A stretch of DNA of 64,000 nucleotides from Schmidtea polychroa (taxonomy: Eukaryota), in contig CM097885.1 in the NCBI GenBank assembly GCA_044892525.1, forward strand, positions 65,348,001 to 65,412,000, in the 5' to 3' direction. The notes under the pieces were generated by a model that was not told where the DNA came from, made no database searches, and was given only the letters and a program-made list of their open reading frames with translations. This document shows, piece by piece, positions 2,529 to 58,314 of this stretch. Numbering within the stretch: position 1 is the stretch's first letter; each line of letters opens with the position of its first letter. A program made the translations under genes and the position numbers.

Positions 2529-4740
2529 CCCTACACTGCATGACTTTTTATATTTGATAGGAAAAAATGTTTTTAAGGGGAAATTACCGTCTGAGTTCAG
2601 GAAAAATACACAAAAAAATTAAAAATCACTAATTTAGTAGATATTATGCAATTTCAATATGTATCACCAGTGATACATTATGCAGTAATACAAATGGTGT
2701 AATACGGAAATACATAATATAATAATAAAATGCATATATCTTCAATATAACACAACTTGTTTGGCAGTTTATTATAATTCAAAATAACAATTCATTATAA
2801 GTTCAAATAAAAAATATATAATTAAAAAAATAACTAAAAAATATAAAAAAATATAAATTAATTCATAATAATTTGATATAATATGACTATAGGAATGATT
2901 TATTTGTTCAAATGGAAATTGGTAAAACAATTTCTATTTTTTAGAAGGCACAAATTCGATTTACATTTTTCACATGACAGAAGATAAAAAGTTGCATTTT
3001 GGATTTTTACATCGTTGCCTCTCATCAGTCCATATTGGCCAATGTGCAAATTTGTCCAATCGAACGTCTGCTGGTGGATAATGAGTTGCTGACGTTTTCT
3101 GTCTTTTCGCTTCAATTGCAGTTTTTATTTTTGTGCTAGATGGTCTACCTTTTCGAGTTGTAGACGTGCAAGTTTTACATAAACTCTCAGCTACTTCAAG
3201 TCGAAAATCCAATAATGACATAGTGTCCTTGTATCTCTCGTCGAAAGCGCGTTTATATAATAACCATGAATTTACCAATGATACATCTATCAAGTGGTAA
3301 AAAATTCTTATGTACCATTTTTTGGATCTTATTTTAATTTTATATCTACCAATAAGACTATCAGTTTTATCAACTCCACCCATAAACATATTATATTCTT
3401 TGATTATATTTGGGCATTCTAAAGTAATCATTTCCTTTCGATTTTTGTCAAAACGTTCAGCTGTTTGTATTGGCTCCTTTCCTGTGAACGTCGAAATCAA
3501 ATTTACAAGCTTGTTATCTTTCCAAACTACAGTTGCAATTTCAATTTCATCAATGCATCCAACATATTCTACAATAGTGCCACGTTTTTCCTTTTTTCAT
3601 TCTATTTCTGTAGGTAGCTTGCAATTTGGGATGCGATTTCTGCGAACTGTTCCAACGGTATATATTTGGTTTTTTGCTAATTCTACAACTAATGGCAACG
3701 TGGTATAATAATTATCGAAATATATACGATAATTTTCATATTTTGGAACACTGCGTAATAATCTGATAACAATGTTAGCTGAACAGCCCAGATCTGGTTC
3801 ATTGGATAGCCGTTTTGTAGGATAATTTTCCTGCCCGGTATAAATTTCAAAATTGTACGTAAATCCGGAAATTCCGCTTAGTACAAAAAGTTTGTAACCC
3901 CATTTGTGAGGTTTGTCTGGCAAATATTGTTTCAGATAACTCCTAGCTTTGGTCGAACATAACTGTTCGTCAAGTGACAAACACGGTTCATATGGCACGC
4001 TTTGAAATTTATTTAGAAGAGATGTTATAAGAGGTCGAATTTTAAATAATCGATCGTGTTCTGCATGACCCCTAGCAAGCATTTTAGTGTTGTCATTGAA
4101 ATGAATAAATTTTCTAATTTTTTCGAATTGATTTACAGCCATTGTCTCTTGAATTAATTTATTACCTATGACTGGTGACCAATACTTTCTTGTATTAGAG
4201 ATATGAACAACAGAAGTCAATACACAAATTCCAATATACTGACTGATTTCCGTTTTATTTATTTTGAATGGATGTGCAGGATAATAAAAACATGCGACAG
4301 ATTATAATAGTACTGTATATTTTTGTTATAATATTTATTTACTACAATGCATGATGTATCAACAGTGATACATGAAGTTAATATTGATATATAAAGGAAA
4401 TAACAATAAGTTATATAATAAAATGTTGTTTTAATAAATAATATAGTATATTATTAAACAAATTTAACTCAACTTACACTTTTTATATAAAAAATTCAAA
4501 ACGTATAACTGATTGTTGTCTAAGTACTTTGTACACTTTCACTTAAACTGTAAGACGTTTTAAAAATTGATTTGGTAATACAAAACTATTGAGAATTACA
4601 TTACGGTTTTTTTGTATTATATTGCAAATATAGCCAATACAATGTAATATGAGAGAACATTTACCGAGAACAAGAGCGAGACAGTTTTTATTCTAATAAG
4701 ATAATTGTGTATCACCAGTGATACAATATGCAGCGTAGGG
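2529..4740 (-). mobile_element. piggyBac element with both ends, defective transposase
   Basis: TTAA at 2525-2528 and 4741-4744; 13-bp TIRs CCCTAC(A/G)CTGCAT. Confidence 0.92.
2900..4271 (-). pseudogene. piggyBac (PGBD3-like) transposase, N-terminally deleted
   Basis: Motifs SLDEQL, KPHKWGYKLF, YFDNYY, MGGVDK and a C-terminal Cys-rich domain (CKNPKC..CEKC..LC..C..H). One in-frame TGA at 3597-3599 joins the two track ORFs; a frameshift lies near 2975. Confidence 0.9.
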
Positions 4741-20206: not shown

Positions 20207-22561
20207 CAGGGGTCTCAAACACGCGGCCCGCAACGAAAAAACAGATTTGTAATTTAACCAAACTTATTTAACAATTAAAATCATAATTGACTGTATAAAT
20301 TAAAACTAATCTTTTTAATTATTTTTATTTATACATATGACGTCTAGTACAATTTAATAATGGCTTTATTACGTCTTTCTTATGAATCTTATCGAAAACA
20401 GTTTATTTATTTTAAAAATTATTGATTTTATTATTTAAATTAAAAAATATAAGTTATATTAAAAATACATATATTTTACATAATTTAAATTTTTGTTTAT
20501 TTTAATTTAATGTTATTTCAATCAACAAATAATAATTGGCATATTTAAAATTTTTTATACCCATCACAAAATGACTTTGTTATCTAGAAAAAGAAAACTC
20601 GTTGATGAAAGAAGGGTTTTCCAAGAGAAGTGGGAGAATTTATATTTTTTCACAGAGGCGAGAGATAAAATTCAGTGCCTTATATGCCAGCAGACTATTG
20701 CAGTACCAAAGGAGTTCAACCTTCGCCGGCACTACGACACTATGCATCGTGAAAAATATGATAAATATACTGGAAAAATTCGAGATGAAAAAGTTAACAA
20801 GCTTAAAATAGAATTTGATAAGCAACGAAACTTTTCGAATTTAAGCCAATTTGCAGAAAATTCAGTAAAAACAAGTTTTGAGCTAAGCCTGATGATAGCT
20901 GAATCATCGCGACCTTTCACAGAAGGTCCATTCATAAAAGAATGTTTTTTGAAGGCCAGCGAAATTTTAATTCCTGATAAAAAGAAACTATTCGAAAGCA
21001 TAAGTCTGTCTGCTAATACAGTTGCAAGCAGAATAACCGATTTAGCAGATAATGTGAAAAAACAATTTATTGAAAAGGCTGGAGATTTTGAAGCATTTTC
21101 GATCGCTCTTGATGAGAGTACTGATTTGGTAGATACTTCACAGTGCGCAATTTTTATAAGAGGAGTGGACAGTAAATTTAATGTAACGGAAGAATTTCTA
21201 GACTTGGTACCATTGAAGAATACCACAACGGGACGTGATTTATTTAAAGGATTGGAAGATTGTCTTGAAAAAGCTGGATTACCATGGAACAAACTTGTAT
21301 CAATGGTCACGGATGGAGCGCCAGCTATGTGTTCACAAACAATCGGTGTTGTTGGATTGGTGAAGACCAAACTACAAAGCCTCAATATACCAAATAATAA
21401 TTTCACTAGCTTACATTGCGTTGTGCACCAAGAAGCTCTGTGTAGCAAAAGTATTAAAATGATGGGTGTCATGGATGTGGTTGTGAAAACGGTCAATTTT
21501 ATACGTTCACGAGGCTTAAATCACCGACAGTTCACTTCTTTCCTAGCAAGTATAGAAAGCGAATATCGGGAAATTCTTTATTACACCGAAGTTAGATGGC
21601 TGAGTCGAGGAAATGTGCTGAATCGTTTTTTTGCACTTAGAGAAGAGATTTATTCTTTCATGAAACTCAAAAAGAATGAGGTTCCACAGCTTACTGATGC
21701 CAAGTTTATTTGCGACCTTGCCTTTCTGACAGATTTAACTGGTCATTTGAATGCATTAAATTTAAAACTTCAGGGCAAAAGACAAGTCATTACACAGATG
21801 TATGACAGTGTTAAATCATTCAAAGTCAAATTGTCTTTATTTCAAAGACAGCTTATTGTAGGCAACTTAGCCCATTTCTCAACTTTGAATTCCTTAGGAA
21901 AAGTCGAAAACCAATCCCTGAAAGAATATGCAGATATAATTTCAGATTTGCATCAACAATTTGTTTTATGTTTTAACGATTTTAAGGCACTTGAACCACA
22001 TTTTCAGCTTTTTGCAACACCATTCGCCGTTGAGATTGAAAATATAGCAGAGGAAATGCAGATGGAATTAGTAGATCTTCAGTGTGATTCCATATTGAAG
22101 CAAAAGTATTCAGATGTTGGAATTCTAGAATTTTATCAGTTTGTTTCAAAAGAAAGGTTTCCTATGTTACTTTCTGCTGCTGCAAGGATGATAGCAATGT
22201 TTGGAAGTACGTATGTTTGCGAACAATTTTTCTCTTCCATGAAAATTATCAAATCGCCATTAAGATCTAGGCTTACTGATGAACATCTGCAAGCATCTCT
22301 AAGACTGGTTTCATCACAGGACATTAAACCTAACATTGATGCCTTGGTTGATGCTAAACGATGCCAGGTAAGTGGGCAAAAGATGGATTGATTTCACAGT
22401 AACATTAATTTTAGTATTTTAATTTAAGAAAGCAGCATAATGAATGCTAAAATATTAAAATAAAATGTTTTTTAGTTTTGTTGAGTTTTTAATTAAATAA
22501 ATATTAACTTCGGTCTTTCAGACTCCACATGTTCTGGAAAACAATTATTTATGTTGCGGCC
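20207..22561 (+). mobile_element. Buster-type hAT element, left TIR present, right TIR missing
   Basis: CAGGGGTCTCAAAC-ACGCGGCCCG at 20207 after CACTAACC (TA at positions 4-5). Subterminal ATGTTGCGGCCC at about 22550 abuts the exonuclease-like fragment. Confidence 0.8.
20571..22391 (+). CDS. Intact hAT (Buster/SPIN/GTF2IRD2-like) transposase, 606 aa
   Basis: N-terminal CLIC..RRHY...H finger, ALDESTD, TDGA, HCVVHQEALC, EVRWLSRG and STYVCEQFFS; no stops or frameshifts. Confidence 0.95.
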   Translation: MTLLSRKRKLVDERRVFQEKWENLYFFTEARDKIQCLICQQTIAVPKEFNLRRHYDTMHREKYDKYTGKIRDEKVNKLKIEFDKQRNFSNLSQFAENSVKTSFELSLMIAESSRPFTEGPFIKECFLKASEILIPDKKKLFESISLSANTVASRITDLADNVKKQFIEKAGDFEAFSIALDESTDLVDTSQCAIFIRGVDSKFNVTEEFLDLVPLKNTTTGRDLFKGLEDCLEKAGLPWNKLVSMVTDGAPAMCSQTIGVVGLVKTKLQSLNIPNNNFTSLHCVVHQEALCSKSIKMMGVMDVVVKTVNFIRSRGLNHRQFTSFLASIESEYREILYYTEVRWLSRGNVLNRFFALREEIYSFMKLKKNEVPQLTDAKFICDLAFLTDLTGHLNALNLKLQGKRQVITQMYDSVKSFKVKLSLFQRQLIVGNLAHFSTLNSLGKVENQSLKEYADIISDLHQQFVLCFNDFKALEPHFQLFATPFAVEIENIAEEMQMELVDLQCDSILKQKYSDVGILEFYQFVSKERFPMLLSAAARMIAMFGSTYVCEQFFSSMKIIKSPLRSRLTDEHLQASLRLVSSQDIKPNIDALVDAKRCQVSGQKMD

Positions 22562-27106: not shown

Positions 27107-30100
27107 ATTATAAAACATTACAAATTATTTTAATTGCAAATAACACTGCTTTAGATGAATAAGTGGTAATCTGTTAGTATGTGAAAGAAGATGTAATGCA
27201 TTGTGTTTCGACGAAAAATAGCTCCTTGATTGGTTAAGGTTTCGAAATGACAACAGTGAATCCAGCAACATGGTTACAGTTAAAAGCAAAATGGTCAATA
27301 TATAAAAATAAACAATGGAGTCTGACAATACATGAAAAGAAATAATAGCTTGTTTTCGTATTAAAACAATGGTTATAGTTTTGTCATGAGGATTGCCCTT
27401 TAAATAAAATTTCTCTAAAATCTTAATCGTTTTCTCTATGCCATTTGTTGTTCTGCTTTGTTTTTGTTTGCTGTTGGACTTAATTTTCCTACATTTACTT
27501 AATTTTATCTTTTATTTTAGAACTCCATCGTAAAACTTGACCCTTTCATCTTTCTGTCACTAAATTTACCTCAGGATTTTCTTAGGGTTGCGCTACACGC
27601 GCCACCTCGTTCAGAATTGAAACGAACTTTTGCCTGTGTAGATTTGTCCCACAAGTTTAGAAGATTTGAAAAGCGACCTCCTCGGGGTGTAGACGAGGAT
27701 TCATGCTTCTCCATTGAAAGTTTTGTCCTATTGGAGGACTAACTTATATACATTTTAATATATAAATTTTGTTTTATTCATTTATTTTCTTTTAAAATTT
27801 AATTTTATTGATCAAAATTTTATTTTCGTTTAGCCGTTCTCTTTTGGTACTTCGAGGACGAAAGTGAGGTTTTCATTATACATTTTTATTAATCATTAAA
27901 TTATTCTAATCTACCGCATTCATCTCTACCTCCTCATTGGTAGGACATTCCTTTTCCTGCATCTGCATTCTCAACAATACGACTTCAGCTTCGTATTGGA
28001 ATAAGAGAATCTCCATTCTTTCAAGCTTTCTTTTACACATCATATCCTCTTGTTCCAAATCGTTGATTTTTCTCTCCATTGTTTTCACTTTTTTTCATTT
28101 CGTTCATTGTGTTTCGACATTCTTTCATTGATTCTTCCTCGTGGGCCTCCTGAAGTCAAATATAAATAAAATTTTCTTAAACACTATCGCACAAGGCAAA
28201 GCACACCACAGCGAAGTCCGACCAAACAAGGTAACAAATCTATATTCATATTAATCTATAACTATGCTAATTTTATAGAATTTATTTACACGCATGCAAT
28301 TTTACCATGTAGTTTCATACTGTGGTTTCGATCACATTGAAAGACTCGAGTCGTAGGTTATCTATAGTATGCTTTCTATTTCTGCACAGAATGATTTTTA
28401 TTACTATGAACACTGTCAGGATGAGTTATGGTATGTTGTAGTTCTTGAAATTTAATTATAACGTTTACTATTGTCTGTATATTAATTATTGTCGGTGTGT
28501 ATAGGAAAGATTTGTTAAAACCTAACAGTCTCCTGTAAAAATCTGTGTCGGGACTGTTAGGGTGTGTGTATGTAATGTGAAAAAAATGATAATAATAATA
28601 ATAAGAAGTGTAACAAATTTAACAAACAAAATATATTATCAAACTTTTATTAAAAAAATACTATAAGACCTTATTTAATTGGGATATTGTTAAACTTAGA
28701 ACAGACTTCGAGTATCTAGATCGTTTGTTGTTTAATCGTGAATTTAGTATATTTGGCTTTTTATAATTTTTATAATCAAGAGTGTTTTGAGTTGTTTTGT
28801 TGAATTTGGATTAAACTTTGAATATCTAGATCATTGTTGTTTAATCAGTAAATTTAATAAATCGGGATCGAAATTGCTTTTTCTGTCTTCTTGTTTTTGA
28901 ACTATTCTTTCGATTATTTAAAATATCAAATTTCCGTAATTATATCTTTCGAATTTTCTTTATAGATTTTTTGAATTTTTGTTTTAAACATTTCATTTCC
29001 CTAACACTACGGGAACAAAATGATAGGAATAAGAAAAACCTAATTGATGTTTTTTTAATACATAAAAACAATAAAAATACAACATTCTATTACAAGGTAT
29101 ATCAAAATATTCACAGATTATTAAAGTTTGACCAATCTCAGCTTGAGTCCGTTTATTTATTAACAATTAAAAATAAAATTAACAATCACCTCAAATATAT
29201 TTCAATTTGTATTGTATAAATATATATATAAATATATATATATATATATGCGTGTGTATGTGTGTGAATGTCTACAGCTTCCTGCGCTCGGATATGTAAA
29301 ATAGGTATGCTCTAAATTATATTGCAATATCAATTTCTGAATTTGCAATTCTTCTTAGAAGCGCTTATTTTTTGGGTGATTTGACTGAGAAATCCGTCGA
29401 CTTATATATGAAATATATATGTCAACACACTCTGTTCTGTTAAAGTCAATAGTATTTCTGTCTTTAAAAGTGCAGATTTTAATTGTTACTATTTCTGGAA
29501 TTATCCCTTTACCCAGCATCTTTAATGTATCTTTGTTTGTTATTTATAGACAAAATTGATAAAATATTATTAATGAATTCTAATACACATTCAATCGATA
29601 ACTGTAAGATTACATGTAAAAATAGTTCAAAAATTATATTTGATTTTAAAGTTTTAGCCCCTCTATATGATTGTCGAAAACGTGGAATCAATTATTTATC
29701 AGAAAAGTCCCAAGGAAAGTTTTGAGATTTATGCACATTTTTATATTTATTTCTAAAGCTCTAAAGCTATCATTGTTAAAAATTTATCTGTGTAACTCAC
29801 TACAAATATTGATTCATGATTATATGGATTTTTACTATTTTATTATTTTAATATAATTTTATGATTTATATTTTTTTCTCTTTATAATTTTGCCAATAAT
29901 TTTCAAACAAAAATGCACTTAGTGCGAAAATCACTGCTACCAACAATCAACCAGATGGTTGAATTTTTAATTAAAATAATAAAATAATAAGAAGAAGAAT
30001 AATAATAAGAATGACAATAACAATAATAATAACGATAATAATAATGATAAAATATTATACTGAAAAGTAACAACATATTCTGATATTTACTTGGTAATAA

Positions 30101-30356
30101 AAATCGGTTTATCTCATCAGAAATATTTTAAACAAAACTGTTGTTTAACCCAAAATAATTGCGTGTAATTTCTTAATGCTTTTTACTGATAATATTGATT
30201 TGTATATAAAATATTTAATAATAGCAACAACAATAACAATAACGATAACAATAAATAAAACAAAATAAATTTATTAATGTCATCAATTGCATCACATCAA
30301 ATTTTTAATAATACGTCAATATAATAATGTTTATTCTTTTCATCTCGTAGATACCA

Positions 30357-30647
30357 TCATTTTTGATTATTGTCTACATTTATATTTATTCTGTACCTAT
30401 TTGTTCCTATTGTATAGTATTTGAGCTTCAAAATTTTTAACGTCCTTCCATCTTCTAACATTACTCTCTGGGGCGTTAAGGTTATGTCCTCATAACCTTT
30501 TCCTACAAAATATATATCTATCTTTTTTCCTTCTTTAATTATTGTTGTTTTCTTGATATTTTTATCATATATTATTGTAATATATTCTTCCTGAATATCT
30601 TCTATTGAAATCGTAGGTTCTGGTCCTAGTTCATCTTCTTCCTCCAT
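30357..30647 (-). CDS. Acidic plus ubiquitin-like terminal ORF of element 2
   Basis: Contains PQRVMLEDGRTLK; LEDGRTL is identical to ubiquitin residues 50-56. The rest of the fold is only weakly similar. Confidence 0.4.
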   Translation of the reverse strand: MEEEDELGPEPTISIEDIQEEYITIIYDKNIKKTTIIKEGKKIDIYFVGKGYEDITLTPQRVMLEDGRTLKILKLKYYTIGTNRYRININVDNNQK

Positions 30648-30699
30648 TTGTTCTTCTTCGTCATTTATTTCCTTTTGTTCTATGATTTTTGTTTGTTCG

Positions 30700-31560
30700 C
30701 CATCTTCATTCCATTTGTATTCATCTTCATCATTATATATATATATGTGTGTGTGTGTGTTTATTCGGAGTAATTTTTTCCATTTCTCTTTCTATCGCTT
30801 GTTCCCATTCAATTTCGGTGAGAATATAGATAAGTCTGGTTATGAGGCATATATCATTGATGTTGAAGGGTTCTGGTTTCAGTAATATGTCTTTCAATTT
30901 TTTGTTTCTTTTTAAATCATTTGTATGTTTTATTACTTGAAACGCAAGATTGGATAGCTTGATTCTCCAGAATATTTTCTACGAATGTTCTCATGTATCT
31001 TTGATTCGACAGTTCCCTTATTCCCATGACTAATTGTTACACATTTTATTTTTTTGGCGATGTCAAATCCAACTATAATTTTCCCATATAAATGTCTCTT
31101 TATTTCTAATAGGGCTGCGTATTCATCCATATTACCCAAGATACTTTCTCTGTTGGCATTCGTTTTTTCCGGGAAAAATTACCTTACCTTAACTCTTGGG
31201 GTTATTTTACTTTGAAATAGACAGTCTCCTTTGTGATTTCTTATACAGACGTCTACTGATCTAAGGTTCCTATTAAAATAATTTACTGTTTTAATGTCTA
31301 CAAATACTATTTTTTCTTTTCTCTCTTCTGGTGTGAGTATTTGTTTTTGTAAAGGCTATTTTTTCTTCTATAAATATGCTATTCATTGTGATGTTTGACT
31401 AGATGGGTTCTAAACTTTTAAAAGGGTTTTATAATGTTGGAAAAAATAACATCTCGATTGCTATAACACATGGCATGTTGTGCATTTGTACAATTCTGAT
31501 GACATTTTTCTATTGTTGATTGTTTTGAAAATTATGGATATGTTATTCACTCCGATAACG
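30700..31560 (-). pseudogene. REX4/ISG20-like exonuclease-fold ORF, copy B
   Basis: MPCVIAIEMLFFPT..NPFKSLE, FVDIKTVN, HLYGKIIVGFDIAKKIK and IYILTEIEWEQ align colinearly with copy A; several stops and shifts. Confidence 0.6.
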
Positions 31561-32759
31561 CTGCCTCTTCCACTTATATTTTCTATAAGTTTGGATACTT
31601 ATCCATATTATTATTATTGTTATTAGTACTATACTAAATATTATTATATAAAAGAGCCATTTTTTGTGTAAAGGTTTTTGTTGAGGGTAAAAGAGATTTT
31701 GATATTCCCAGTTGTTAATTGTTATTTCGGGTTTGTTGAGTGGTATTTTGAGGACTTTTGATTTTTGAGGTGGTGGTGTTTTTCGAGATGTGTATTTAAT
31801 ATTTAACTCTGTTAGAATATCAGCATCTTTATCCTTTAATGACGATTCATTAGCTATGTTTTTCAGTTTCTCGGCGACGTTATTATTCTTTGATCTCTTT
31901 TCATCTAATGGTGTGGGCATTATGCATCCTATGGCTCCTCTTGGAGTTTCTTTTAAACTTGGTTTTGAAATTTCCCTATTAATTACCTCTTCATCTGAAG
32001 TGACCTCTAAGTGTCTTTTTGCTGAAACTGTTATCACATTATTTTCACTTGACTTTATTCCATAATACATTAAACAATCTTCATTTTCCATCCTCATCCC
32101 ATAAAAATATAATATTATTTCATCGTGTATTCCTAATTTATTATGCCACTTGGCTCTTGCTATTTGTTTTAATTTTTTACTTTTGTACAAGCGTGTATTC
32201 CTTTTTCATGAATAATTATTCTAGATTTATCTCTTGCATCTGTCTTTAGAGAGATCTCTAATGGTCTATGGAATCTTTCGTTTTTTCGAATATATTCACT
32301 ATAACATCTTAACATCTCCTTTATCTCGATTTCAAGTTCAAACAATTTAGTTTCTTGTTGTCTCTTCGCTAAAAGCGGTATTAAATTTCCCAGGCTCTCA
32401 AGGTCCATTCCTTCCATTTGAATTTTATTTATTATTCGTAATGTCTCACTATCATCTACTAGATAATTTTTCAAAGATTCCTCTTGTTCTTGTCTCAAAA
32501 TATTCTGTCTATCTAACTCTGCCAATAATTGTTTATTTCTTTCTCTTTGCTCTCTTAATTCTTCATTGTCTAATCTAACTTCATTTGTATACGCTTTAAA
32601 TTCATTTATTGATACATCAATTTTATTTCTTTCAATCAATCTCTCATATTTTGTCTAAATTCCTTTAATTCATCTCTCAAAATTTCAATTTAATCATTCG
32701 ATTCCTTTATTTCCATACTATTTATTTGTTTTATTTCAGGCTCTTTTTAAATTGGACTC

Positions 32760-33900
32760 TATTCGGTGATTCGACTCGTATATTTCTACATGTTTTCACC
32801 ATATGACCATATTTCTGGGAGTCAAAACACCTTATTTCCCCTCGAAAATTAACTATCTCTTCCATCATTACTAAATGGGCTAGGTCGTCTATTTCTATTG
32901 AATATCTGTTGATTGGGACTCATTCTCCTTCCTCCAAAATTGTTTCTATTTGTCTCAACATCATTTCTGTTATCTCCATTTCTATTTCTATCAAATCGAT
33001 TTGTTCGTGTTTATTCGAAATAATTATTCCTATTATTCTGATTATCACTAAAACGATTATTTTTATTATATCGATTATTTCCGAAATAACTCTCTCTATT
33101 ATAATTTCTTTGACTCATGTTATCTCGATCATAACAATTATCTCTATTATTCATGTATGTATTTCTATCATTGAACTCTGAACGACCATTATTTCGATTA
33201 TTCGATTTATCCCTTGGACTATTAAATTTATTATTGTTATCAAAATTATGACTTCTATTCTTTTTTTTCTTCTATTCTTAACATAATTAAGATCCAACTG
33301 TTTCATTTCATCCCAAGGAATGTTGTCTTTATCAATTGACTTAGTTTTATCTTTTTCCACCTGAATTTCTACTGCTTCCATCGCAGAATTATATCTATCT
33401 CTTTGTATCGCTTCAATTCTTCGTGCTTTTTGTACTAACTCATTGAGATCTCCATATTCTACCATTATCAAAGATTTATATAAATGTTTTTGAATACCAT
33501 TCCATAATTGGTCTTCTATTAATCTTGTCGTGTGTTCTCCAACAATTCAGTTAAATTATAAACATATTCACCAATTGTTTCTCTACTACCTTGATATCTA
33601 TTTCGAAATTTTTGAACATTTATTTTCTGTAAGTCTCTCGATTGCTATTTGACTTCTCAGATTCTCAACTAACTCTTCCCAATTTCTACCCTTGCACTCT
33701 AAATTATTATATGCTTGTAATGCATACCCTTTTAAATATAATGGTATCCTTCTTTTTAGCTCATCTCTTGTCCATCCACAAGCTTCCGCAAACTGGGCAA
33801 TTTTTCATGCTCTACTGGTAATGTTTTTATCAAAATAATACGATTATTATTTTCATCATCTCTATTTTGCCAAGTATGACGGATGTTATCATTATTCTCA
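32760..33900 (-). pseudogene. Gag of element 2 with degenerate CCHC knuckle
   Basis: FAEACGWTRDELKRRIPLYLKGYALQAYNNL, DLNELVQKARRIEAI, and knuckle CFDSQKYGHMVKTC at 32788-32829. Confidence 0.75.
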
Positions 33901-34002
33901 TTATTATTCGCTCATTATTGTTTGATTTCTCAATTTATATATAATTTCAGGTTGATTATCAATGTTATCACAAAAATTATTTAATTACACTTGTCCAATA
34001 AT

Positions 34003-34046
<44 letters not shown>

Positions 34047-34116
34047 CCAATTAAGATACCCTCTTATCGCAATTCCTATCCCCCGAATTGATTTATTCAA
34101 TTTTGTTTTAATTTAG

Positions 34117-34134
34117 TCCCGGTTCGCGGCACCA
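34117..34134 (-). promoter_or_regulatory. Primer-binding site, complementary to a tRNA 3' end (most like tRNA-Phe)
   Basis: Minus strand TGGTGCCGCGAACCGGGA, 2 nt from the LTR end CAACA. The tRNA assignment comes from recalled tRNA-Phe 3' ends. Confidence 0.8.
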
Positions 34135-34227
34135 AATGTTGAGGTTCTCAAATCTCAACTTGATGATTCCTATATAAATAAGAACGCAAACACTGGTTCA
34201 ATAAATTTATTAAATCATCACAATTAA

Positions 34228-34240
34228 AAATGAAGTTAAA

Positions 34241-34317
<77 letters not shown>

Positions 34318-34330
34318 TGTGTATGTGTAT
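34228..34330. repeat. (TA)n followed by (TG)-rich microsatellite; similar tracts at about 29215-29275 and 33992-34043; (AAT)n at about 34893-34947
   Basis: Directly visible. Confidence 0.95.
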
Positions 34331-34892
34331 GTGTATGTAAATGCTTGCAGCTTCCTGAGCTCGGGTGTGTAAAATAGGTATGCTCTAAATTAAATTACAA
34401 TATCAATTTCTGAATTTGCAACTCTTCTTAGAAGCTCGTATTTTTTGGGTGATTTGACTACTTATATATCAAAATTTTTGTTGACTAAATAAACATGGTG
34501 CACTTAGTGCACTGCATTAAATAAATAAGCTCAAATCGTTCAATCAATTATTTTGTGGAGTGCTATATTACAATTCTCTGATTCCAAACAGTGCACTTAG
34601 TGCACAAAATAAACCAGCACAAATATATATTCAACCAACTGGTTGATTTTAAATGAACAAATTATTAGTTTTTGTTTTTTGTCTGATAAAGTTTTAAAAG
34701 TCGTTCGGAATCCTAAATAATAAAATAGTCAATAAATTTTTTAAGAACAACAATTTGTAAATTTTTCTACTTATAATAAATTATTTAAATATATACCTTT
34801 AGCAATTTTATTTAATCAATCAAATAAAACCAAATTTTCAGTTGTGTTTATGAATTTTTAGAAAAATCAATATATTATTATTAATAATCATG

Positions 34893-34947
<55 letters not shown>

Positions 34948-35279
34948 GTAACAACTAGCAGATAATAACGCTCACAAAAATAAGTATAAGAATATATTAG
35001 TATTATTCATAAAAATATAATATATCTCCAAGAACCAATAAATCAATATAATTGTATAAATAGATAAATTAACAGATCACATCAAATTGTTAATAATAAG
35101 TTATCACAATTGTAGTGATTTTTACACAGCGTTCTTAATAAAAAAGGAAAAAAACATGATCGTTTTATTTTCAAAAAAATTTCTAAAAATAAACATTTAT
35201 GTTAAACTTGTTTAAATAATCAGTTTTTTGATTCTTAAAAACAAATTATAATAATCTTAATATTTTTTAATAATTGATT

Positions 35280-35858
35280 ATGAATTATATTATTAATGAT
35301 TGGTTCACGGAATATTCCGATGGATGGGTTGGACAAGCTATGAGCCTGAAAATAAAAGAGATTCTAGAAAGTAAAGTAACCAAATTTCAAGATTTATTAA
35401 TTTTTGAAAGTCATGGGAAAGTTCTAGTATTAGATGGTATTATTCAATTAACAGAAAGAGATTAATTTCTATATCAGAAAATGACATCAATGTTACTGTT
35501 GAGTTCTCATCCTAATCCACAAAATATATTAATAATCGGTGGTGGTGACGGCGGAGTGATGCGCGATGTAGCTGAGTACAATAAAGTTAAAAAAATTATC
35601 CAATGCGAATTTGACGAAGAAGTTGTCAACTTGAGTAAGAAACACTTGCCATTCATGGCAGTTGGATATGATAATGATAAAGCAATTTTGACAATTTCTT
35701 AGGGCTTCGAGTTCCTCAAACAACGCAAAAATGAATTCGATATCATCATAACCGATAGCACTGACCCACAAGGCCCAGGCAAAGTTCTTTTTCAATCGAC
35801 TTATTTTCAGATGATTTATGAATCTCTGAAATCCGATGGAATTATGTGTTCTCAAGGA
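35280..35858 (+). pseudogene. SRM: Spermidine synthase pseudogene, intronless and 3'-truncated
   Basis: WFTE, KVLVLDGIIQLTERD*F, HPNPQNILIIGGGDGGV, CEFDEEVV, FDIIITDSTDPQGP and LKSDGIMCSQG; in-frame TAA (35463) and TAG (35700). Confidence 0.88.
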
Positions 35859-36136
35859 GTATTTCAAATTAGAATGAAAATCTTGGCCTGCATTTCTTTA
35901 TTAATATTACTTATGGCATTTTTGTTCAATACCAATTATGTGGCCGATTTATTTCTACCCTATATGCAAAATGTAACCTTGAAAGAAATGTGGAGTTATC
36001 AAGATATCAATTCTTTATACATCATCGAAATTGTTATTAAAGTTCCTAACTCAACCTTAGTTAATATGAAAAGTCGTTCGGAAAATCGTATTGTTCCCAC
36101 CTATATTATTAAATTCGAATTTCCTGGATGGATTTA

Positions 36137-36744
36137 CAGGGTTATTCAAATCTATATACCCATTTATGCAAATCAATATCCTTATTTATGCAAATCTATA
36201 TGCCCATTTAATAAAAACATATAAATATAAGGGTTGAGAGATAAAAAATTAAAAACGCCATAAATATATTTCAAAGGATCATTTATTATAAAAATTGTTC
36301 CCTTCTGAACATCTCTGGAATGATGAAACTTTGCATTGTCCATTACCAGAAATTCGCCTGGGTTTTTCCGAAAGTAGGGAATTAGATGTTCACGTATAAA
36401 CTCGATAAATAGAGATTGGTTGTATGAACCAGTTCGATATTGATAGACAACTATACCATTTATACCAATCACACACATTAAACTTTTATTCACATTTCTG
36501 TTAGCAGGAACTTGGATAAAAGCTTTTGTGTTTATAGGAGAATACCTGTATGCCCTACTTGTGTGCAGATTGAATCCTGTTTCGTCAAGAAATACCAGGT
36601 TTTCATCACTTATCATTAAAATTTCAGATGCATATATAAACTTTTAATTAAAAAGGTATATTGATTTGCATAAATGGGGATATAGATTTGCATAAAGAAG
36701 GATATAGATTTGCATAAATGGGTATATAGATTTGCATAACCCTG
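36137..36744 (-). mobile_element. Internally deleted IS630/Tc1-like (DDE_3) element
   Basis: TA flanks; TIRs CAGGGTTAT(T/G)CAAATCTATATACCCATTTATGCAAATC built from about 21-bp repeats; ORF LVFLDETGFNL...LVMDNAKFHH. Confidence 0.9.
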
Positions 36745-36902
36745 TAATGTAGATTATTTGAATAAGATTCGACGTGGTTTCACAACAATCTAAGGCTCGC
36801 AGATTCAATTTTGTCATGTCAAACCGATCGTAAAATCAACTTTAAACATTTTAGTCATGGTTTCAAATAGTCCATCAGGACTCCATTCCGTCCAAACTAC
36901 AA

Positions 36903-37045
36903 CAACAATAATGTTTATTCTTTTCATCACATAGATACCATCATTATTGATTATTGTCCACATGTATATTTCTGTACCTATTTGTTCCTATTATGTAGTA
37001 TTTGAGCTTCAAAGTTTTTAACATTCTTCCATCTTCTAACAAAAG
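36903..37045 (-). mobile_element. Second copy of the 3' end of element 2 (UBL tail, purine tract, TGTTG)
   Basis: LLEDGRMLKTLKLKYYIIGTNRYRNIHVDNNQ*; the nucleotide sequence is close to 30324-30462. Confidence 0.85.
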
Positions 37046-37561
37046 AATATAAGCCCTCCCGCAATGTTTTAATTATAGTAGTGTTTAATTGTCCCGCAAT
37101 TTTCATTTGCAAATGGCAAAGAATTCAGTTCAATGAACATGATGGAGGAACTTCTCGAACGAATAGCTTTCGGGGATGAGGATTTCGGTAGAGATGTCGA
37201 TTTTGGTGCTGTATTTTCTGAGGATGTTGGCGAAACATTTTGAGTTATTGTGCAATCACTTGTCGAAATCTGTTGAAAACATGTAATCTGACGAATCGGA
37301 TCTAAAATCCTGCGGCAGCAATCCACCAAATAAATTTGATATTAGTTGGCCAAAAACACTATTAAAGTTATCAGGATCTCTTGGAGTCATAAAAAAGGAA
37401 CCATCAGTTTCGTTTGTAGTATTTCCAATTTCCATTGAGTTATCATATTCAAGTCTTTCAATAAATCCATCCTTGCACGTCACACATTTACCATTCTGAG
37501 ATATGTGAACGCCCCTGTCGCGTTGAATAGCATGATCATTTGATTTGATAATTAAATCCAC
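37046..37561 (-). pseudogene. RNF126/RNF115-like E3 ligase fragment
   Basis: Zinc ribbon (CYS..)...KCVTCKDGFIERL, FGQLISNLFGG, SDSSDYMF..FD, ENTAP (alternate frame) and a broken RING start AICK*KLRDN*TLL*LKHC, all in the expected order. Confidence 0.55.
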
Positions 37562-37781
37562 TGAGGAAATCTCAAACTTGATTTAAAATCATATATTTGG
37601 CCAAAGTACAGGAATTTCAAAAAAATTCGAAAACTCAAGATTCCACTCGATCCAAACTCACTCAAAAAAACTTAAATCGATTAGTAAAAACAAAACACAC
37701 TAACAATAATTCGAATCCAGCAAAACCCAAAATTCCAACCAATCCAAAGCTCCAAATCGTAAAATCATTTTCACAATTTTA

Positions 37782-37840
37782 CGCGTCTGTGTGCGCACAC
37801 AACCCAAAAACAAAGAAAGTAAAAAGCGCACACAGACGCG
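37782..37840. repeat. Perfect 15-bp GC-rich inverted repeat with 29-nt spacer
   Basis: CGCGTCTGTGTGCGC (37782-37796) / GCGCACACAGACGCG (37826-37840). Confidence 0.95.
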
Positions 37841-37884
37841 ATCATCGACAATTAATCAAGTAGACTGTTTGAGATTATAAGGAT

Positions 37885-39224: not shown

Positions 39225-40196
39225 CTACATAAAATTACACTTTGAAAAATTGTTGAACAATCTATTTTTCATTCCGGAATAAACATAAACGAGAAAGTTT
39301 AATACCGAATCCAACGACGAGAGCAAACTTGCGATATCGGTAAAGTGATTTAATTGGTTCTTATTGCCGATTACGTCGGCATGTTGATCAATGAACATTA
39401 CTACAACCGTGCAACTTTTCGGCAGTTCGCAAATCATGAAAATTCCACATAGAATCAAAACAGTTTTTGTAGAAAAATTATTATTTAAATTTTGATCACG
39501 AGAAAATTGTCGGTCCCGAAATTTTAATACGAATATAATAGAGATACTACAGATCGCTATTATAACTGCTGGTATTGGACTGATTGCAATAAAATAAAAA
39601 GGTAAGTAGAAAAACGTATACCAAACAAAATTGGTATGATTATTTAAATGGAATTTCACTTTACCCGTTTTACCGACGGTTATTCGAGACTCAAATATTC
39701 TTGGAATGTTTAAAATAAGACTCGATACTAAAATAATTATTAAATGTTTTGCGATAGTTTTTCTGTTAATTGATTGAGATTTCAATGGATGACTGATCAC
39801 TAGACATCGGATCCATGCAATATACGCAATCGTCCAATTGCGGCTGACTAAGAATATTCTAGAAATATTCCTGATTACGTGAACAATAAAGTTGATGCCG
39901 ATTGACGAAAAAATAGTCGTAGAAACAGGTCGATGGAGTAGCCTAGTGTTATAGAAAAACAATTGATTTATAAAAAATGTCAACCCGTAGACGCTTTCAA
40001 TAATTGATAGAATGTAAATCAAAGTTAGAAAGTTACCTTTTTGACGGATTCTATGGAAAAAGATTGCCGAAAGGAAGTTGAGAATGAAACCAATTAATAC
40101 GATTACCAGTACAGCGACCGTAAAGCTGATTTGAATGGATTTCTCTCTGTATTTGTCCTGTAATGAACAATTGGAAACTTCTGTTGTGTTATTCAT
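39225..40196 (-). CDS. Class A GPCR, peptide-receptor-like (FMRFamide/myosuppressin-receptor type), 323 aa, single exon
   Basis: Seven hydrophobic segments; GFILN, WIRCLVISHPL, LNIPRIFE, FMICELP and SVLNFLVY. Confidence 0.88.
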   Translation of the reverse strand: MNNTTEVSNCSLQDKYREKSIQISFTVAVLVIVLIGFILNFLSAIFFHRIRQKGNFLTLIYILSIIESVYGLTFFINQLFFYNTRLLHRPVSTTIFSSIGINFIVHVIRNISRIFLVSRNWTIAYIAWIRCLVISHPLKSQSINRKTIAKHLIIILVSSLILNIPRIFESRITVGKTGKVKFHLNNHTNFVWYTFFYLPFYFIAISPIPAVIIAICSISIIFVLKFRDRQFSRDQNLNNNFSTKTVLILCGIFMICELPKSCTVVVMFIDQHADVIGNKNQLNHFTDIASLLSSLDSVLNFLVYVYSGMKNRLFNNFSKCNFM

Positions 40197-40379
40197 TTTG
40201 AGAGTTCAATTAATGATTAAACGTTTAAATAGTCGACAATTAATTTTAGATCATTTGATCATTATCTTAATGATTCTTGCGCAGTGTAAATATAATTTAT
40301 ACGATAATATTATTTATTAGGAAATAATTGGCCGGTTTGATTTTGTAAAAAAAGTTTATTTATATATTGAAATATATTC

Positions 40380-51150: not shown

Positions 51151-52062
51151 TATGTATTTGACATACTTACCTTTTGATTTGCCCTGCATGATCCAGTGGT
51201 GGCCTGTTTTAACGTCGATTTGACCTACATGAAACTCGGAAAAATTTTCGCGAAAATAGCTTAGAAATAGTGAAAAATAATAAAAACTGTGAAAAAAAAT
51301 GTGAAAAAGCATTGAAAATTATAAAAAATGAAAATAGTTATTTGACCTACATAAAAACACTAAGAATTTTAGAAAAAAATTTCTTACTCCTGTGGGTACT
51401 TGATCCAGCGGTGGCCAATCTATCTACTTAAGAGAGATGTAAATTATATTGTATCTATTAAAATTCCAGTTTAAAAGTTTTAGAAATTTGAAAAATAATG
51501 AAGAAAAGCATCGAACAATGTAGGTTATAATTGGAATTATTAAATTTAAAGTTAATTATTTATAGGTATGCAGAAATTGAACAAAAGAGATTGATTGAAG
51601 TCACGAAACCAGGAGAAAAGTACTGCAATCTCATTAAAAATATTTCCCGAAATTATTACTCAAAGAAAGCATTTTAATATACTTAAATAAAAATTTAATA
51701 AATCTTATATTTTTAAAAAGAATAAAAGTTATGACATTAAAAAATGTAAATTTAATGAAAAATACAGCTTTTACAAAACCGACTAACGATAATGTGTCCT
51801 AAACGTACTTTTGACAGTTGCCATATCTCATCAAAAACTTTAAATAAAAATGTAAATGGAAGTATACGCAGGTGATTTTGAAATAAACATAAAAAGTGGT
51901 CAAAATGAGAGCTACTGTCTTTCTAGAGTTAATGAAAAAAATTACTTTTGAAATTTATGACCAATGAATATAGACAGATTGATAATCTCATTTCTTATTG
52001 GACAAAATTATTGGGTAAATAAATAAATACAGAATATTCTTGTTAAATTTACAATTTTCTCG

Positions 52063-53013
52063 ATGTCTTTACAAAATTTTTTCTACATCTTTATGTCAAT
52101 TATAAATATCCTTTCGCTAATTTCTGGCATTATTGGATGCCTCATGATATTTTATATTCTTTATCAAGACAAAACGATTAGAAACTTTTCTCGTCTACTT
52201 TTTTTGCAACAAAATGTTTTTGATTTTATTGTTATATTAAATTCAGGAGTCCAGCAAGTCATTTGGGCCATTACCACTAAACTGATACTGGTAAACAACT
52301 TGTCCATTTGTACAACATACTTGGTAATCGACAGTACAGCAATATATGGAGCAACTTGGACTCTTTGTCTCATGTCAATTGAACGGTTCATTGTAGTTTC
52401 ATGGCCAACGAGCCCGATCTTTCGCTTCTTGAAATGGTGGCATAACTTCATATTGTTTATCATCACGCTTACGATATCGCTTTTGGCGATTATTTTAAGT
52501 ATATTACTAAATTCGATTTCAATGCCAATTTGTTATTACACAGTAACCAATTTGGGAAGCCTGAGCATCTTGGTGTACAGCGCCTTCGTTCCGTGTTTGA
52601 TCTTGATATTCTGCAACAGTAAAATCAGTTACATTTTGTGGAAAAGTTCAGTGAAAAACAGCAACAAAATTGCAATAGTTGAAAGAGCTACAAATAAGCC
52701 TAAAATCGAAAGGAATGGACAGACCATGTCAAAATCAACCATAAAAATCGTCATTATAACTTCGATATACTTTTTTATATGTTGTGTTCCATATAGTTTT
52801 ATTAAGATCGCCTATAATTTCAAGATCATCAACGTTGACTTGGAAACGAAGTCATTTTTTCCGTTAATTACAAAGTTTTTTATCATTTCAAACAGTTCGA
52901 CTAGATTTTATTTTTATATTTTCGGAAGTTTGAGATTTAGACAAATCATTTTGTCATTATTTAGAAAGGCTGGCTTACCTTTAAATGATATGTATGTTAG
53001 CAGGATCAATTAA
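52063..53013 (+). CDS. Class A GPCR, peptide-receptor-like, 316 aa, single exon
   Basis: Seven hydrophobic segments; SIERFIVVSWP, VPCLILIFCNSKI, FFICCVPY and NSSTRFYFY. Confidence 0.88.
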   Translation: MSLQNFFYIFMSIINILSLISGIIGCLMIFYILYQDKTIRNFSRLLFLQQNVFDFIVILNSGVQQVIWAITTKLILVNNLSICTTYLVIDSTAIYGATWTLCLMSIERFIVVSWPTSPIFRFLKWWHNFILFIITLTISLLAIILSILLNSISMPICYYTVTNLGSLSILVYSAFVPCLILIFCNSKISYILWKSSVKNSNKIAIVERATNKPKIERNGQTMSKSTIKIVIITSIYFFICCVPYSFIKIAYNFKIINVDLETKSFFPLITKFFIISNSSTRFYFYIFGSLRFRQIILSLFRKAGLPLNDMYVSRIN

Positions 53014-56454: not shown

Positions 56455-56946
56455 ATTTAAAATATGTTATATAAGTTTGTCTATGTCTATAATTTTAGTT
56501 TTGAGTGAAATTAAGAGAGTTAAATATAGAGTTCCAAAAACCATGTTTTTATGGTTCATTTTTTAATGGTGAAAACATTGAGGAAATTATACAAATTTTG
56601 TCAATATTTGAAGCTTTATTTTAAATCATCTATGAAATAAAAATAAATTAGCTTTCTAACATTTAACTTTTTTCTAATAAAATTAAAACATATTTTGATA
56701 AATAAATTCAGGAAAATTTAATAGTAAATCACAGAAATAACATTGAAATTTAAATAAAGCACAAATGTTGTTTCCAAATTAATTTATGATCGTCCATGTA
56801 ATTTGTTATAATCACTTAATTTTTGAATTTGTTTACAATACTATAAGCCATTAAGGTATTAAATTAGATATAAGTTAAATTGTATTAATGAACTTATATA
56901 TTCATTGCTAGATAAATGCAATAATTATTTTTGTATTTTAGATAAT

Positions 56947-58314
56947 ATGACTGATTTTGAAGAATTTGAGGAGATGTTAGAAGCTCCAGTTGATAGAAGA
57001 AAAGCTGAAGAAATAAAAGAGAATAAAATGAGTAAAATATCTGAAGAATCAAGTAGACATAAAAAGTCAAGCCGTAGAAGAAGTCGATCTAGAAGTTATC
57101 ACAGTTCGAGATCTAAAAGACCAGAGGAAAGACGAAGAAGGCGATCTCGTAGCAAATCAAGATCTAGAAGTAAACGTCGACGTTCTAATAGCAGAGATCG
57201 ACGGGACCGAAAATTTAGAGAGGAAAATCCACGTAAAAGATCTGCATCACGAGGCCGTCGTCAAGAAGGTTCTGATGGCCGAACTGTTGAGCAATTAACA
57301 GAGGAAGAAAAAGATGCTCGAACTATCTATATTTGGCAGTTGTCCCTACGAGTAAGAACTCGAGATTTAGAAGACTTTTTTGTTCAGGTTGGAAAGATGG
57401 ATGTGGTTAGATTGGTACTTGACAATAAAACTGGTAAATCGAGAGGGGTAGCTTTTATTCAATTTAGGGATGTAGAATCGGTTAATAAAGCTTTAGATTT
57501 AAACGGCCAAAAACTTATGGGTGTCCCTATACAAATTAGAACAGTGTCATCGGAAAAGTGTCGTGCTGCAGAAGGTACTATGAATAGTAGCTATATCTAT
57601 TTTAGGGGACCTACTAAGTTATGTGTATCCAATCTTCACCCCCAAATTAATGAACAAATGATTGAAGAAATTTTTGCTCCATATGGTAAAATTGATGAGC
57701 TTAGATTAATGAAAGATATACGTGGGACATCTTTAGGCACAGCTTTTATTTTATTTAGAAAAGGAGAAAATGCTAAAAATGTCGTTGAACAAATGAATGA
57801 TTTTAATTTAGCCGGGCAATTATTGAAAATAGCTCCAGTTGTTGAAGAAGGAGGATTGAATGAATTTGGTGAAAACCAAGGTGTTTCCATGACTGCTGCT
57901 GACCGATTAGGATTAATGGCTAAATTAGCAGTTGGAACTGGATTACAAGTTGTGCCTAAAGCTAATGCTGTTCAAACTCCAATTATTAATTCACAGTGTT
58001 TTGTATTGTCCAATATGTTTGATGTGAAAGATGCTCATGATGATAAGTTTTGTAAAGAAGTTCAGGATGATGTAGTTGGAGAATGTAATCAATTCGGAGG
58101 AGTTTATCATGTTCATATTGATAGAAAATCTCCAAGAGGTGAAATTTATGTGAAATGTCCAAGTATCTATGTAGCTAATAAGTGTGTAAGTACTCTTCAC
58201 GGACGATCATTTGATGGAAGAGTAATAACTGCAAATTATATACCACTAGAGCACTACCATAAAATGTTTCCTGATTCGATTTCAGTGAAGAAACTTGTTA
58301 GAATTGAAGATTGA
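56947..58314 (+). CDS. RBM39: RNA-binding protein 39 (Caper), RS domain plus two RRMs and a UHM; single exon
   Basis: N-terminal EEMLEAP, RS-rich stretch, RRM1 RTIYIWQLS..KSRGVAFIQF, RRM2 LCVSNLH, linker LMAKLA, UHM QCFVLSNMFD..CPS..GRSFDGRVITA. The first plausible ATG is at 56947; the track ORF starts at an upstream TTG. Confidence 0.93.
   Translation: MTDFEEFEEMLEAPVDRRKAEEIKENKMSKISEESSRHKKSSRRRSRSRSYHSSRSKRPEERRRRRSRSKSRSRSKRRRSNSRDRRDRKFREENPRKRSASRGRRQEGSDGRTVEQLTEEEKDARTIYIWQLSLRVRTRDLEDFFVQVGKMDVVRLVLDNKTGKSRGVAFIQFRDVESVNKALDLNGQKLMGVPIQIRTVSSEKCRAAEGTMNSSYIYFRGPTKLCVSNLHPQINEQMIEEIFAPYGKIDELRLMKDIRGTSLGTAFILFRKGENAKNVVEQMNDFNLAGQLLKIAPVVEEGGLNEFGENQGVSMTAADRLGLMAKLAVGTGLQVVPKANAVQTPIINSQCFVLSNMFDVKDAHDDKFCKEVQDDVVGECNQFGGVYHVHIDRKSPRGEIYVKCPSIYVANKCVSTLHGRSFDGRVITANYIPLEHYHKMFPDSISVKKLVRIED

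Follow-up and report, generated by a model that had tools for sequence, protein, structure and literature searches.

Segment 37082–37858 of the 64,000-nucleotide stretch analysed here (the window) is almost certainly a solo LTR that carries a spliced piece of a host RNF126/115-like mRNA. The explanation that best joins all of the observations, and which we regard as probable, is that this LTR belongs to a Bel/Pao family with a ubiquitin-Gag, that the mRNA piece was likely captured by template switching, and that it likely serves as a disposable leader, with host deubiquitinases cutting at the ubiquitin. The features of the region are collected in Table 1.

Table 1. Features of the LTR and of its surroundings, in window coordinates.
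Feature	Position	Strand	Basis or remark
Solo LTR, 777 bp, Bel/Pao ubiquitin-Gag family	37082..37858	-	Boundaries common to family copies; paired in the two-LTR elements L021–L023
Target-site duplication AGTAG, left copy	37077..37081	+	Sequence recount
Target-site duplication AGTAG, right copy	37859..37863	+	Sequence recount
GC-richer unit of ~84 bp with internal inverted repeat	37765..37845	-	Tandem in L021; present in L127–L129
First part of the LTR-borne frame, not from RNF126; AUG of the family at 37592	37525..37592	-	AUG-to-LTR-end comparison
Spliced RNF126/115-like mRNA piece, CDS nt 38–353 (codons 13–118), no RING	37260..37524	-	Alignment to the seven-exon host gene
~59 codons replacing RNF126 codons 119–189 in the window subfamily, frame kept to the LTR end	37082..37259	-	Unlike host exon 6
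Flanking DNA, 35 bp, between two insertions (the "junction" of the original prediction)	37042..37076	.	In neither repeat family
First 137 bp of an element-2-family LTR, source of "LLEDGRMLK"	36905..37041	-	Resumes at 35110 down to ~34137
Separate TG..CA insert, likely a solo LTR	35111..36904	.	5-bp duplication 35106–10 / 36905–09

The solo LTR has TG..CA ends and a 12-bp imperfect terminal inverted repeat. A target duplication together with the TG was found in 9 of the 19 family copies with a located end. Moreover, the empty site was recovered in one contig of run X6, which comes from a different study. This contig joins 37076 to 37859 with 91 letters on its short side and omits 782 bases, corresponding to the 777-bp LTR plus one 5-bp duplication.

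The parent gene of the cargo was located at G000:C1:218200023–218195975. It consists of seven exons with six GT–AG introns and has an intact 220-codon frame. The corresponding 220-aa protein, P0001, possesses an N-terminal zinc ribbon (PF14369) and a C-terminal RING-H2 domain; because of this architecture, and from general knowledge, we take both gene and protein to be RNF126/115-like. The RING of mouse RNF126 was among the top PDB matches of P0001, although not the first.

The minus strand of 37260–37524 encodes CVTCKDGFIERL and the DY motif, and the cargo is 69% identical to P0001 across 98 columns. Exon junctions 1|2, 2|3 and 4|5 are joined in the cargo, while 5|6 is crossed but diverged; counted over the six host junctions, three are matched, one is diverged, one deleted and one replaced. 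Relative to the host CDS there is a 48-nt in-frame deletion. Only half of the zinc ribbon is present, the first CxxC and the host AUG both being missing. Similarity to the host CDS ends at nt 353 (codon 118), and the following 177 nt aligned to the remaining host CDS with a score of 18, which was equalled by 213 of 500 shuffles. A Pfam search of the window fragment gave no match, and a complete zinc ribbon with a RING was not found in it. The original prediction had read an intronless zinc ribbon, a middle DY motif and the start of a RING from this segment. The DY motif is confirmed, the zinc ribbon is indeed encoded without introns compared with the host gene but only in half, and the RING start is contradicted by the loss of similarity at codon 118. 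The comparison of exon junctions with a parent gene, which had been proposed as a check, bore out the origin from an mRNA, as the introns of the host gene are gone in the LTR copies.

For the segment that takes the place of codons 119–189, no homologue was found among nine candidates (0/9), and no source gene was recognised among 52 genome matches, as judged from the match table. The distance from the AUG to the LTR end is 511 nt in the window copy compared with 509 or 512 nt in the in-frame copies, and private frameshifts lie near 37575 and 37276, the latter an indel relative to contigs of the family. The window copy itself is an ordinary, frameshifted solo LTR. The GC-richer unit sits at the 5' end of LTRs bearing different cargos and likely represents the U3/R signals of the element itself.

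The cargo is found in several forms. An older, long subfamily carries codons 1–189 and aligns to the host across those codons without gaps, and even there the RING is cut before its last CxxC. The genome search for this form yielded 1,545 candidates, of which the best 150 were scored, giving at least 164 matches. For the subfamily of the window copy, all 53 candidates were scored, and the 52 resulting rows correspond to 45 places. The two subfamilies are linked by an intermediate (L099) in which the end of the RING has been replaced. The intermediate and the window subfamily arose through later in-frame deletions and replacements. The original prediction of a host E3 mRNA captured by an LTR retroelement is therefore upheld as to the spliced RNF126/115-like mRNA, while the carrier is a Bel/Pao element and not the Gypsy-like element 2. 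Nor is the window copy a snapshot of the capture: the captured piece has been amplified to more than 150 copies, and the 45-place subfamily represented here is a later, shortened derivative. At a further locus (L098, G000:C4:74.37 Mb), the LTR cargo keeps a short piece of RNF126 exon 5 within an otherwise different mosaic.

The carrier was characterised from three two-LTR elements of the window subfamily (L021–L023), in which paired LTRs about 3.8 kb apart surround a primer site, gag and a purine tract (PPT). The LTR pairs are 98.7–99.4% identical in two of the three. These elements contain a frame of 870 codons that encodes a ubiquitin ending in LRLCGG followed by a DUF1759 Gag. DUF1759 (PF03564) was detected by Pfam in L023 with an E value of 9e-13, and both this domain and the Cys/His knuckles of a Bel/Pao Gag are present. 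In L023 (2921–5530), the Gag runs on for about 300 codons without a Pfam match where pol would be. A search of the ESM Atlas returned only DUF1759 clusters below 0.9, none of them named for ubiquitin, and is uninformative either way. The primer site (PBS) is the complement of the 3' terminus of tRNA-Met(CAT) genes that lie in an array and that we take to be those of the initiator tRNA. The array begins at G000:C1:79.33 Mb and has a spacing of 454 bp, and the tRNA pattern matched 1,228 times genome-wide. Pol is absent from all three window-subfamily elements examined, and such copies were presumably mobilised in trans.

Four of the seven loci fetched near matches to the Pao peptidase or RNF126 proved to be young autonomous members of the family (L127–L130). 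Their LTRs are 99.0–99.6% alike and carry three cargos, none of them RNF126. Each has a single frame of 2,032–2,238 codons that starts inside the 5' LTR and runs in the order LTR, primer site, leader, ubiquitin, Gag, protease, RT, Pao peptidase and integrase, the primer site being read as His-Gly-Ser. In L127, protease, RT, Pao peptidase/RH and integrase follow one another in one frame. These elements are located at G000:C1:217.01 Mb, C1:160.92 Mb, C1:240.78 Mb and C2:180.11 Mb; every one of their cargos combines pieces from two or more host loci, and that of L128 includes a proteasome-subunit piece. In another locus (L125), an RNF126-bearing LTR is joined to the PBS, Gag, protease, RT/RH and Peptidase_A17, with gag-pol broken. 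Of the remaining candidates for full elements, L123 and L126 were rejected on inspection of the fetched loci, and L131 is internally deleted. Head-to-tail arrays of the family with a spacing of about 4.5–4.6 kb were also seen among the 40 scored places, with 13 units at G000:C2:21.645–21.706 Mb and 3 at C54:134–144 kb. The carrier is thus assigned to Bel/Pao, possibly to the Flow group.

The LTR cargo is likely a translated leader that is released by cleavage at the ubiquitin. Translation would start in the LTR and pass through the primer site, the leader and the ubiquitin (LRLCGG) into Gag-Pol, as seen in the frames of elements with other cargos and as predicted for RNF126. Cleavage after the GG would free Gag, and any open frame upstream could be tolerated for that reason. 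The phase of the cargos points in this direction. We compared 24 distinct LTR/PBS junctions from about eight cargo groups; in 23 of them the phase with the longest open frame leads into ubiquitin-Gag, although the LTR end on its own closes one of the three phases. Of 20 window-subfamily copies examined, the AUG could be located in 17, and in 8 of these about 170 codons are open from it to the LTR end in this phase. No RNF126-bearing copy examined is open from the LTR AUG through Gag. The 33 loci examined include 17 distinct decayed elements whose ubiquitin can be read; of these, seven retain the frame through the leader, and two do so without stops. The ubiquitin ends in LRLCGG rather than LRLRGG, the former being present in 26 of 31 motif matches, in which overlapping loci are counted repeatedly. 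In run X10, which can only be surmised to be RNA, a single contig spans the LTR end and the primer site; it was not counted as evidence.

It is conceivable, if unlikely, that the same solo LTR and capture are correct while the LTR frame is untranslated or irrelevant, with Gag starting at a leader AUG or at the ubiquitin and the open frames being leftovers of captured coding sequence. The cargos are host coding sequence and hence were open at capture, pN/pS is about 1, the leader frame is lost in 10 of the 17 decayed elements, and the leader has several Met codons of its own, all of which would suit such a start. Nevertheless, inheritance accounts for openness and not for phase, which is that of ubiquitin-Gag in nearly every junction. 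Moreover, changes shared by whole lineages, namely the 48-nt deletion and two 3' replacements, keep the phase, and the young autonomous copies are open from end to end. These points favour the translated leader.

Selection on the cargo was assessed by comparing the copies with one another and with the host gene. The pN/pS ratio is 0.84–1.06 between the RNF126 subfamilies, 0.65–1.83 within them and 0.23–0.63 relative to the host; the within-set value of 0.65 is from loci picked by protein and reflects the choice of loci, and four loci are shared by the two long-subfamily sets. Purifying selection on the cargo was thus not found among the copies, where pN/pS is about 1, and the low values relative to the host fit constraint on the host gene alone. 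By these sequence comparisons the RNF126 cargo evolves neutrally among copies, and because of the ratio of about 1 it is likely a passenger freed by the ubiquitin cleavage. A frame that is kept while its residues are free would fit a passenger leader released at the ubiquitin, as predicted.

A functional accessory, in which the RNF126 piece acts as a ubiquitin-binding zinc finger or a dominant-negative E3 and shields the element from host degradation, is quite improbable. Two genes of the ubiquitin system within one element, the large copy number and the low pN/pS relative to the host would agree with it, and planarian Burro elements are described as carrying apoptosis and ubiquitination domains (PMC6431247). 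Against this, the RING is truncated even in the long form, the window subfamily lacks half of the zinc ribbon and the whole RING, the copies evolve at a pN/pS of about 1, and the other cargos are unrelated genes.

The likely point of capture can be read from the long subfamily. In 19 of 20 loci the similarity to the host ends at the same base, the final CA of the LTR (exactly in 17 and with one changed letter in 2). Across exons 6|7 the spliced host mRNA reads AAA|CATGGTA, while the element reads AAACA|TGGTA, that is, the LTR end followed by the tRNA-Met primer site. CATGGTA occurs once in the 663-nt host CDS, exactly at the 6|7 junction, which was deduced from GT–AG sites and P0001; the chance of TGGTA at a given site is 0.0012. 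The primer-site match is present only across the joined exons and not in the unspliced gene, which points to capture at the primer site. The 3' switch has a microsimilarity of 7–10 nt, and the 5' switch falls somewhere in AT-rich sequence roughly 26 nt ahead of the AUG. Microhomology, for which a check near 37045 had been proposed, is thus found inside the LTR at the 3' switch of the cargo, 37045 being an adjacency of insertions.

Capture of the RNF126 piece at a look-alike of the primer site is rated as likely. The Met-tRNA primer, or the first strong-stop DNA bases, may have paired with the look-alike on a co-packaged mRNA; mis-priming and immediate template switching would both fit. Reverse transcriptase would then have extended along the mRNA in the direction of the 5' end of this template before returning to the element RNA. 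In this way the 3' part of the LTR would have come to consist of the mRNA piece, while ordinary copying of the tRNA end would have regenerated the full primer site. That mimicry of the primer site is a general rule is unsupported by the two other cargos that were traced to intron-bearing parents (2/2), in which 22 and 50 nt separate the last similar base from the LTR end. No further exon was found in about 37 kb and 25 kb downstream of these two, and no protein homologue of the end of the L127 cargo was found among 59 candidates (0/59). Because these two end short, primer-site capture is not the only route used by the family.

Joined exons would also result if a LINE had made a processed RNF126 pseudogene that the LTR subsequently acquired, either as DNA or through read-through, but this origin is very improbable. 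The C-terminal 35 residues of P0001 match a single place in the genome, the intron-bearing parent gene (one of one candidate), and LINE copies keep the 3' end, whereas the LTR copies lose theirs exactly at the primer-site look-alike. Capture by the element itself is therefore preferred. A broader proposal stands at about the balance point between acceptance and doubt. Here, capture of a ubiquitin would have freed the family to translate from its own LTR, the LTR would have become a swappable slot for host mRNAs, the RNF126 cargo would have entered via the tRNA primer on a primer-site copy made by splicing, and the host message would have become the U5 and the integration end.

The surroundings of the LTR account for the apparent fusion near 37045 that was first proposed. 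A search of the source genome (781 Mb, four large contigs) showed that three repeats make up the region. With 37082–37858 as the query, 1,315 first-look candidates were returned and the best 40 scored; 36905–37041 and 36760–36904 belong to two further repeat families. Between the inserted solo LTR and the 5' LTR of element 2 lie 40 bp. The segment 36905–37041 is 90.6% identical to 30323–30460 over 138 nt, confirming the near copy that had been noted, but it is the first part of an element-2-family LTR and does not represent the 3' end of element 2. A primer-binding site is located near 34136, after the resumed part of this LTR. The TGTTG at 36904, which had been assigned to the same unit, opens a third, separate LTR-like insert. 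An assembly chimera, the possibility raised for this junction, was ruled out, as the left junction is real and is bridged without differences by a 98-nt contig at single-copy depth from run X1, which may be the assembly's own sample. The apparent fusion is a nest of insertions, the ordinary adjacency of two of them, because the solo LTR has its own target duplication and an empty-site contig. A fresh capture of the E3 mRNA with an in-frame fusion to the element-2 3' end, which would agree with two pieces 40 bp apart in the same phase on real DNA, is virtually eliminated by five stops between DYMF and LLEDGRMLK, by the solo LTR's own duplication and empty-site allele, which refute a fusion, by the identity of 36905–37041 as the LTR start of another family, and by its sequence following the LTR in none of the 19 other family loci.

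Element 2 (29165–37041) contains a Gypsy-like gag remnant between LTRs that are 77–91% alike. No target duplication was confirmed for it, and it may therefore be a recombinant or two insertions. The insert 35111–36904 carries a spermidine-synthase piece (35251–35857) from which three introns are removed compared with the gene at G000:C4:81.29 Mb; the piece is present in about 10 of the 40 scored places of this family and absent in about 30. It is likely another mRNA capture, in the LTR of a different family. A Tc1/mariner-type insert (~36134–36747) with 86-bp inverted ends and a DDE_3 remnant is nested in it. Elsewhere in the window, an intronless RBM39-like frame of 483 codons (56863–58314) could be another retrocopy, and two 7TM receptor frames (39225–40205 and 52027–53013), a hAT transposase frame (20511–22391) and a piggyBac-like remnant (2970–4301) were found.

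LTR-mediated retroposition is established, with the mRNA in the internal region of the element (Tan et al. 2016, PMC5131818). In common with the cases in the main text of that report, maize Bs1 included, a spliced partial host mRNA is joined here at short microsimilarity; further rounds of mobilisation, multi-gene mosaics and a Pao carrier (BATUMI) are likewise shared. There, however, the mRNA replaces an internal part between the LTRs, whereas here it lies inside both LTRs, is duplicated in each cycle, remains behind in solo LTRs and has its end at the boundary with the primer site. The terms "PBS", "primer binding" and "within the LTR" are absent from that main text.

For Bel/Pao elements, the Flow group includes two planarian families (de la Chaux and Wagner 2011, PMC3118150), and a 2008 Repbase report on a planarian BEL family is cited in the same paper. 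The elements of its main text resemble the present family in having a DUF1759 Gag, three Cys/His knuckles, protease, RT, Pao peptidase A17, integrase and DUF5641 in one frame, with TG..CA LTRs and a 5-bp duplication. The present family differs from these in its N-terminal ubiquitin and its LTR-borne coding cargo, and the word "ubiquitin" is absent from that main text. Planarian Burro elements are also reported to be cargo-rich (PMC6431247).

Cassandra, Helenus and Ajax (Kojima 2024, PMC10886601) are described as non-autonomous elements with host-gene-derived sequence inside their LTRs, as here. Those pieces are 5S rRNA or tRNA sequences thought to be promoters, in contrast to a spliced coding mRNA in the Gag frame and the existence of autonomous members. 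A functional likeness is offered by the cellular ubiquitin inserts of cytopathogenic pestiviruses (PMC8310069), which provide a host-cleaved signal in the polyprotein and a proper downstream N-terminus. That system is an RNA virus in which cleavage is experimentally shown; here, in a retrotransposon, cleavage is predicted and the motif is LRLCGG. Among the titles and abstract openings surveyed, none dealt with Bel/Pao elements bearing a ubiquitin-Gag or with capture of an mRNA at the primer site; such a description may exist in Repbase or in supplements. The RNF126-bearing family is an unusual variant of a known process, in which the RNF126 cargo and the primer-site junction are new.

The family provides a base-exact natural record of the entry of a host mRNA into the LTR rather than the internal region of an element, and ubiquitin cleavage offers a testable reason why a retrotransposon would tolerate arbitrary N-terminal cargo. 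More than 150 intronless RNF126-like copies, many of them open, would mimic the expansion of a gene family in annotation. They can also absorb signal from RNA-seq, RNAi or piRNAs that belongs to the one genuine gene, and they raise the direct question of whether the small RNAs that silence transposons strike the host E3 gene.
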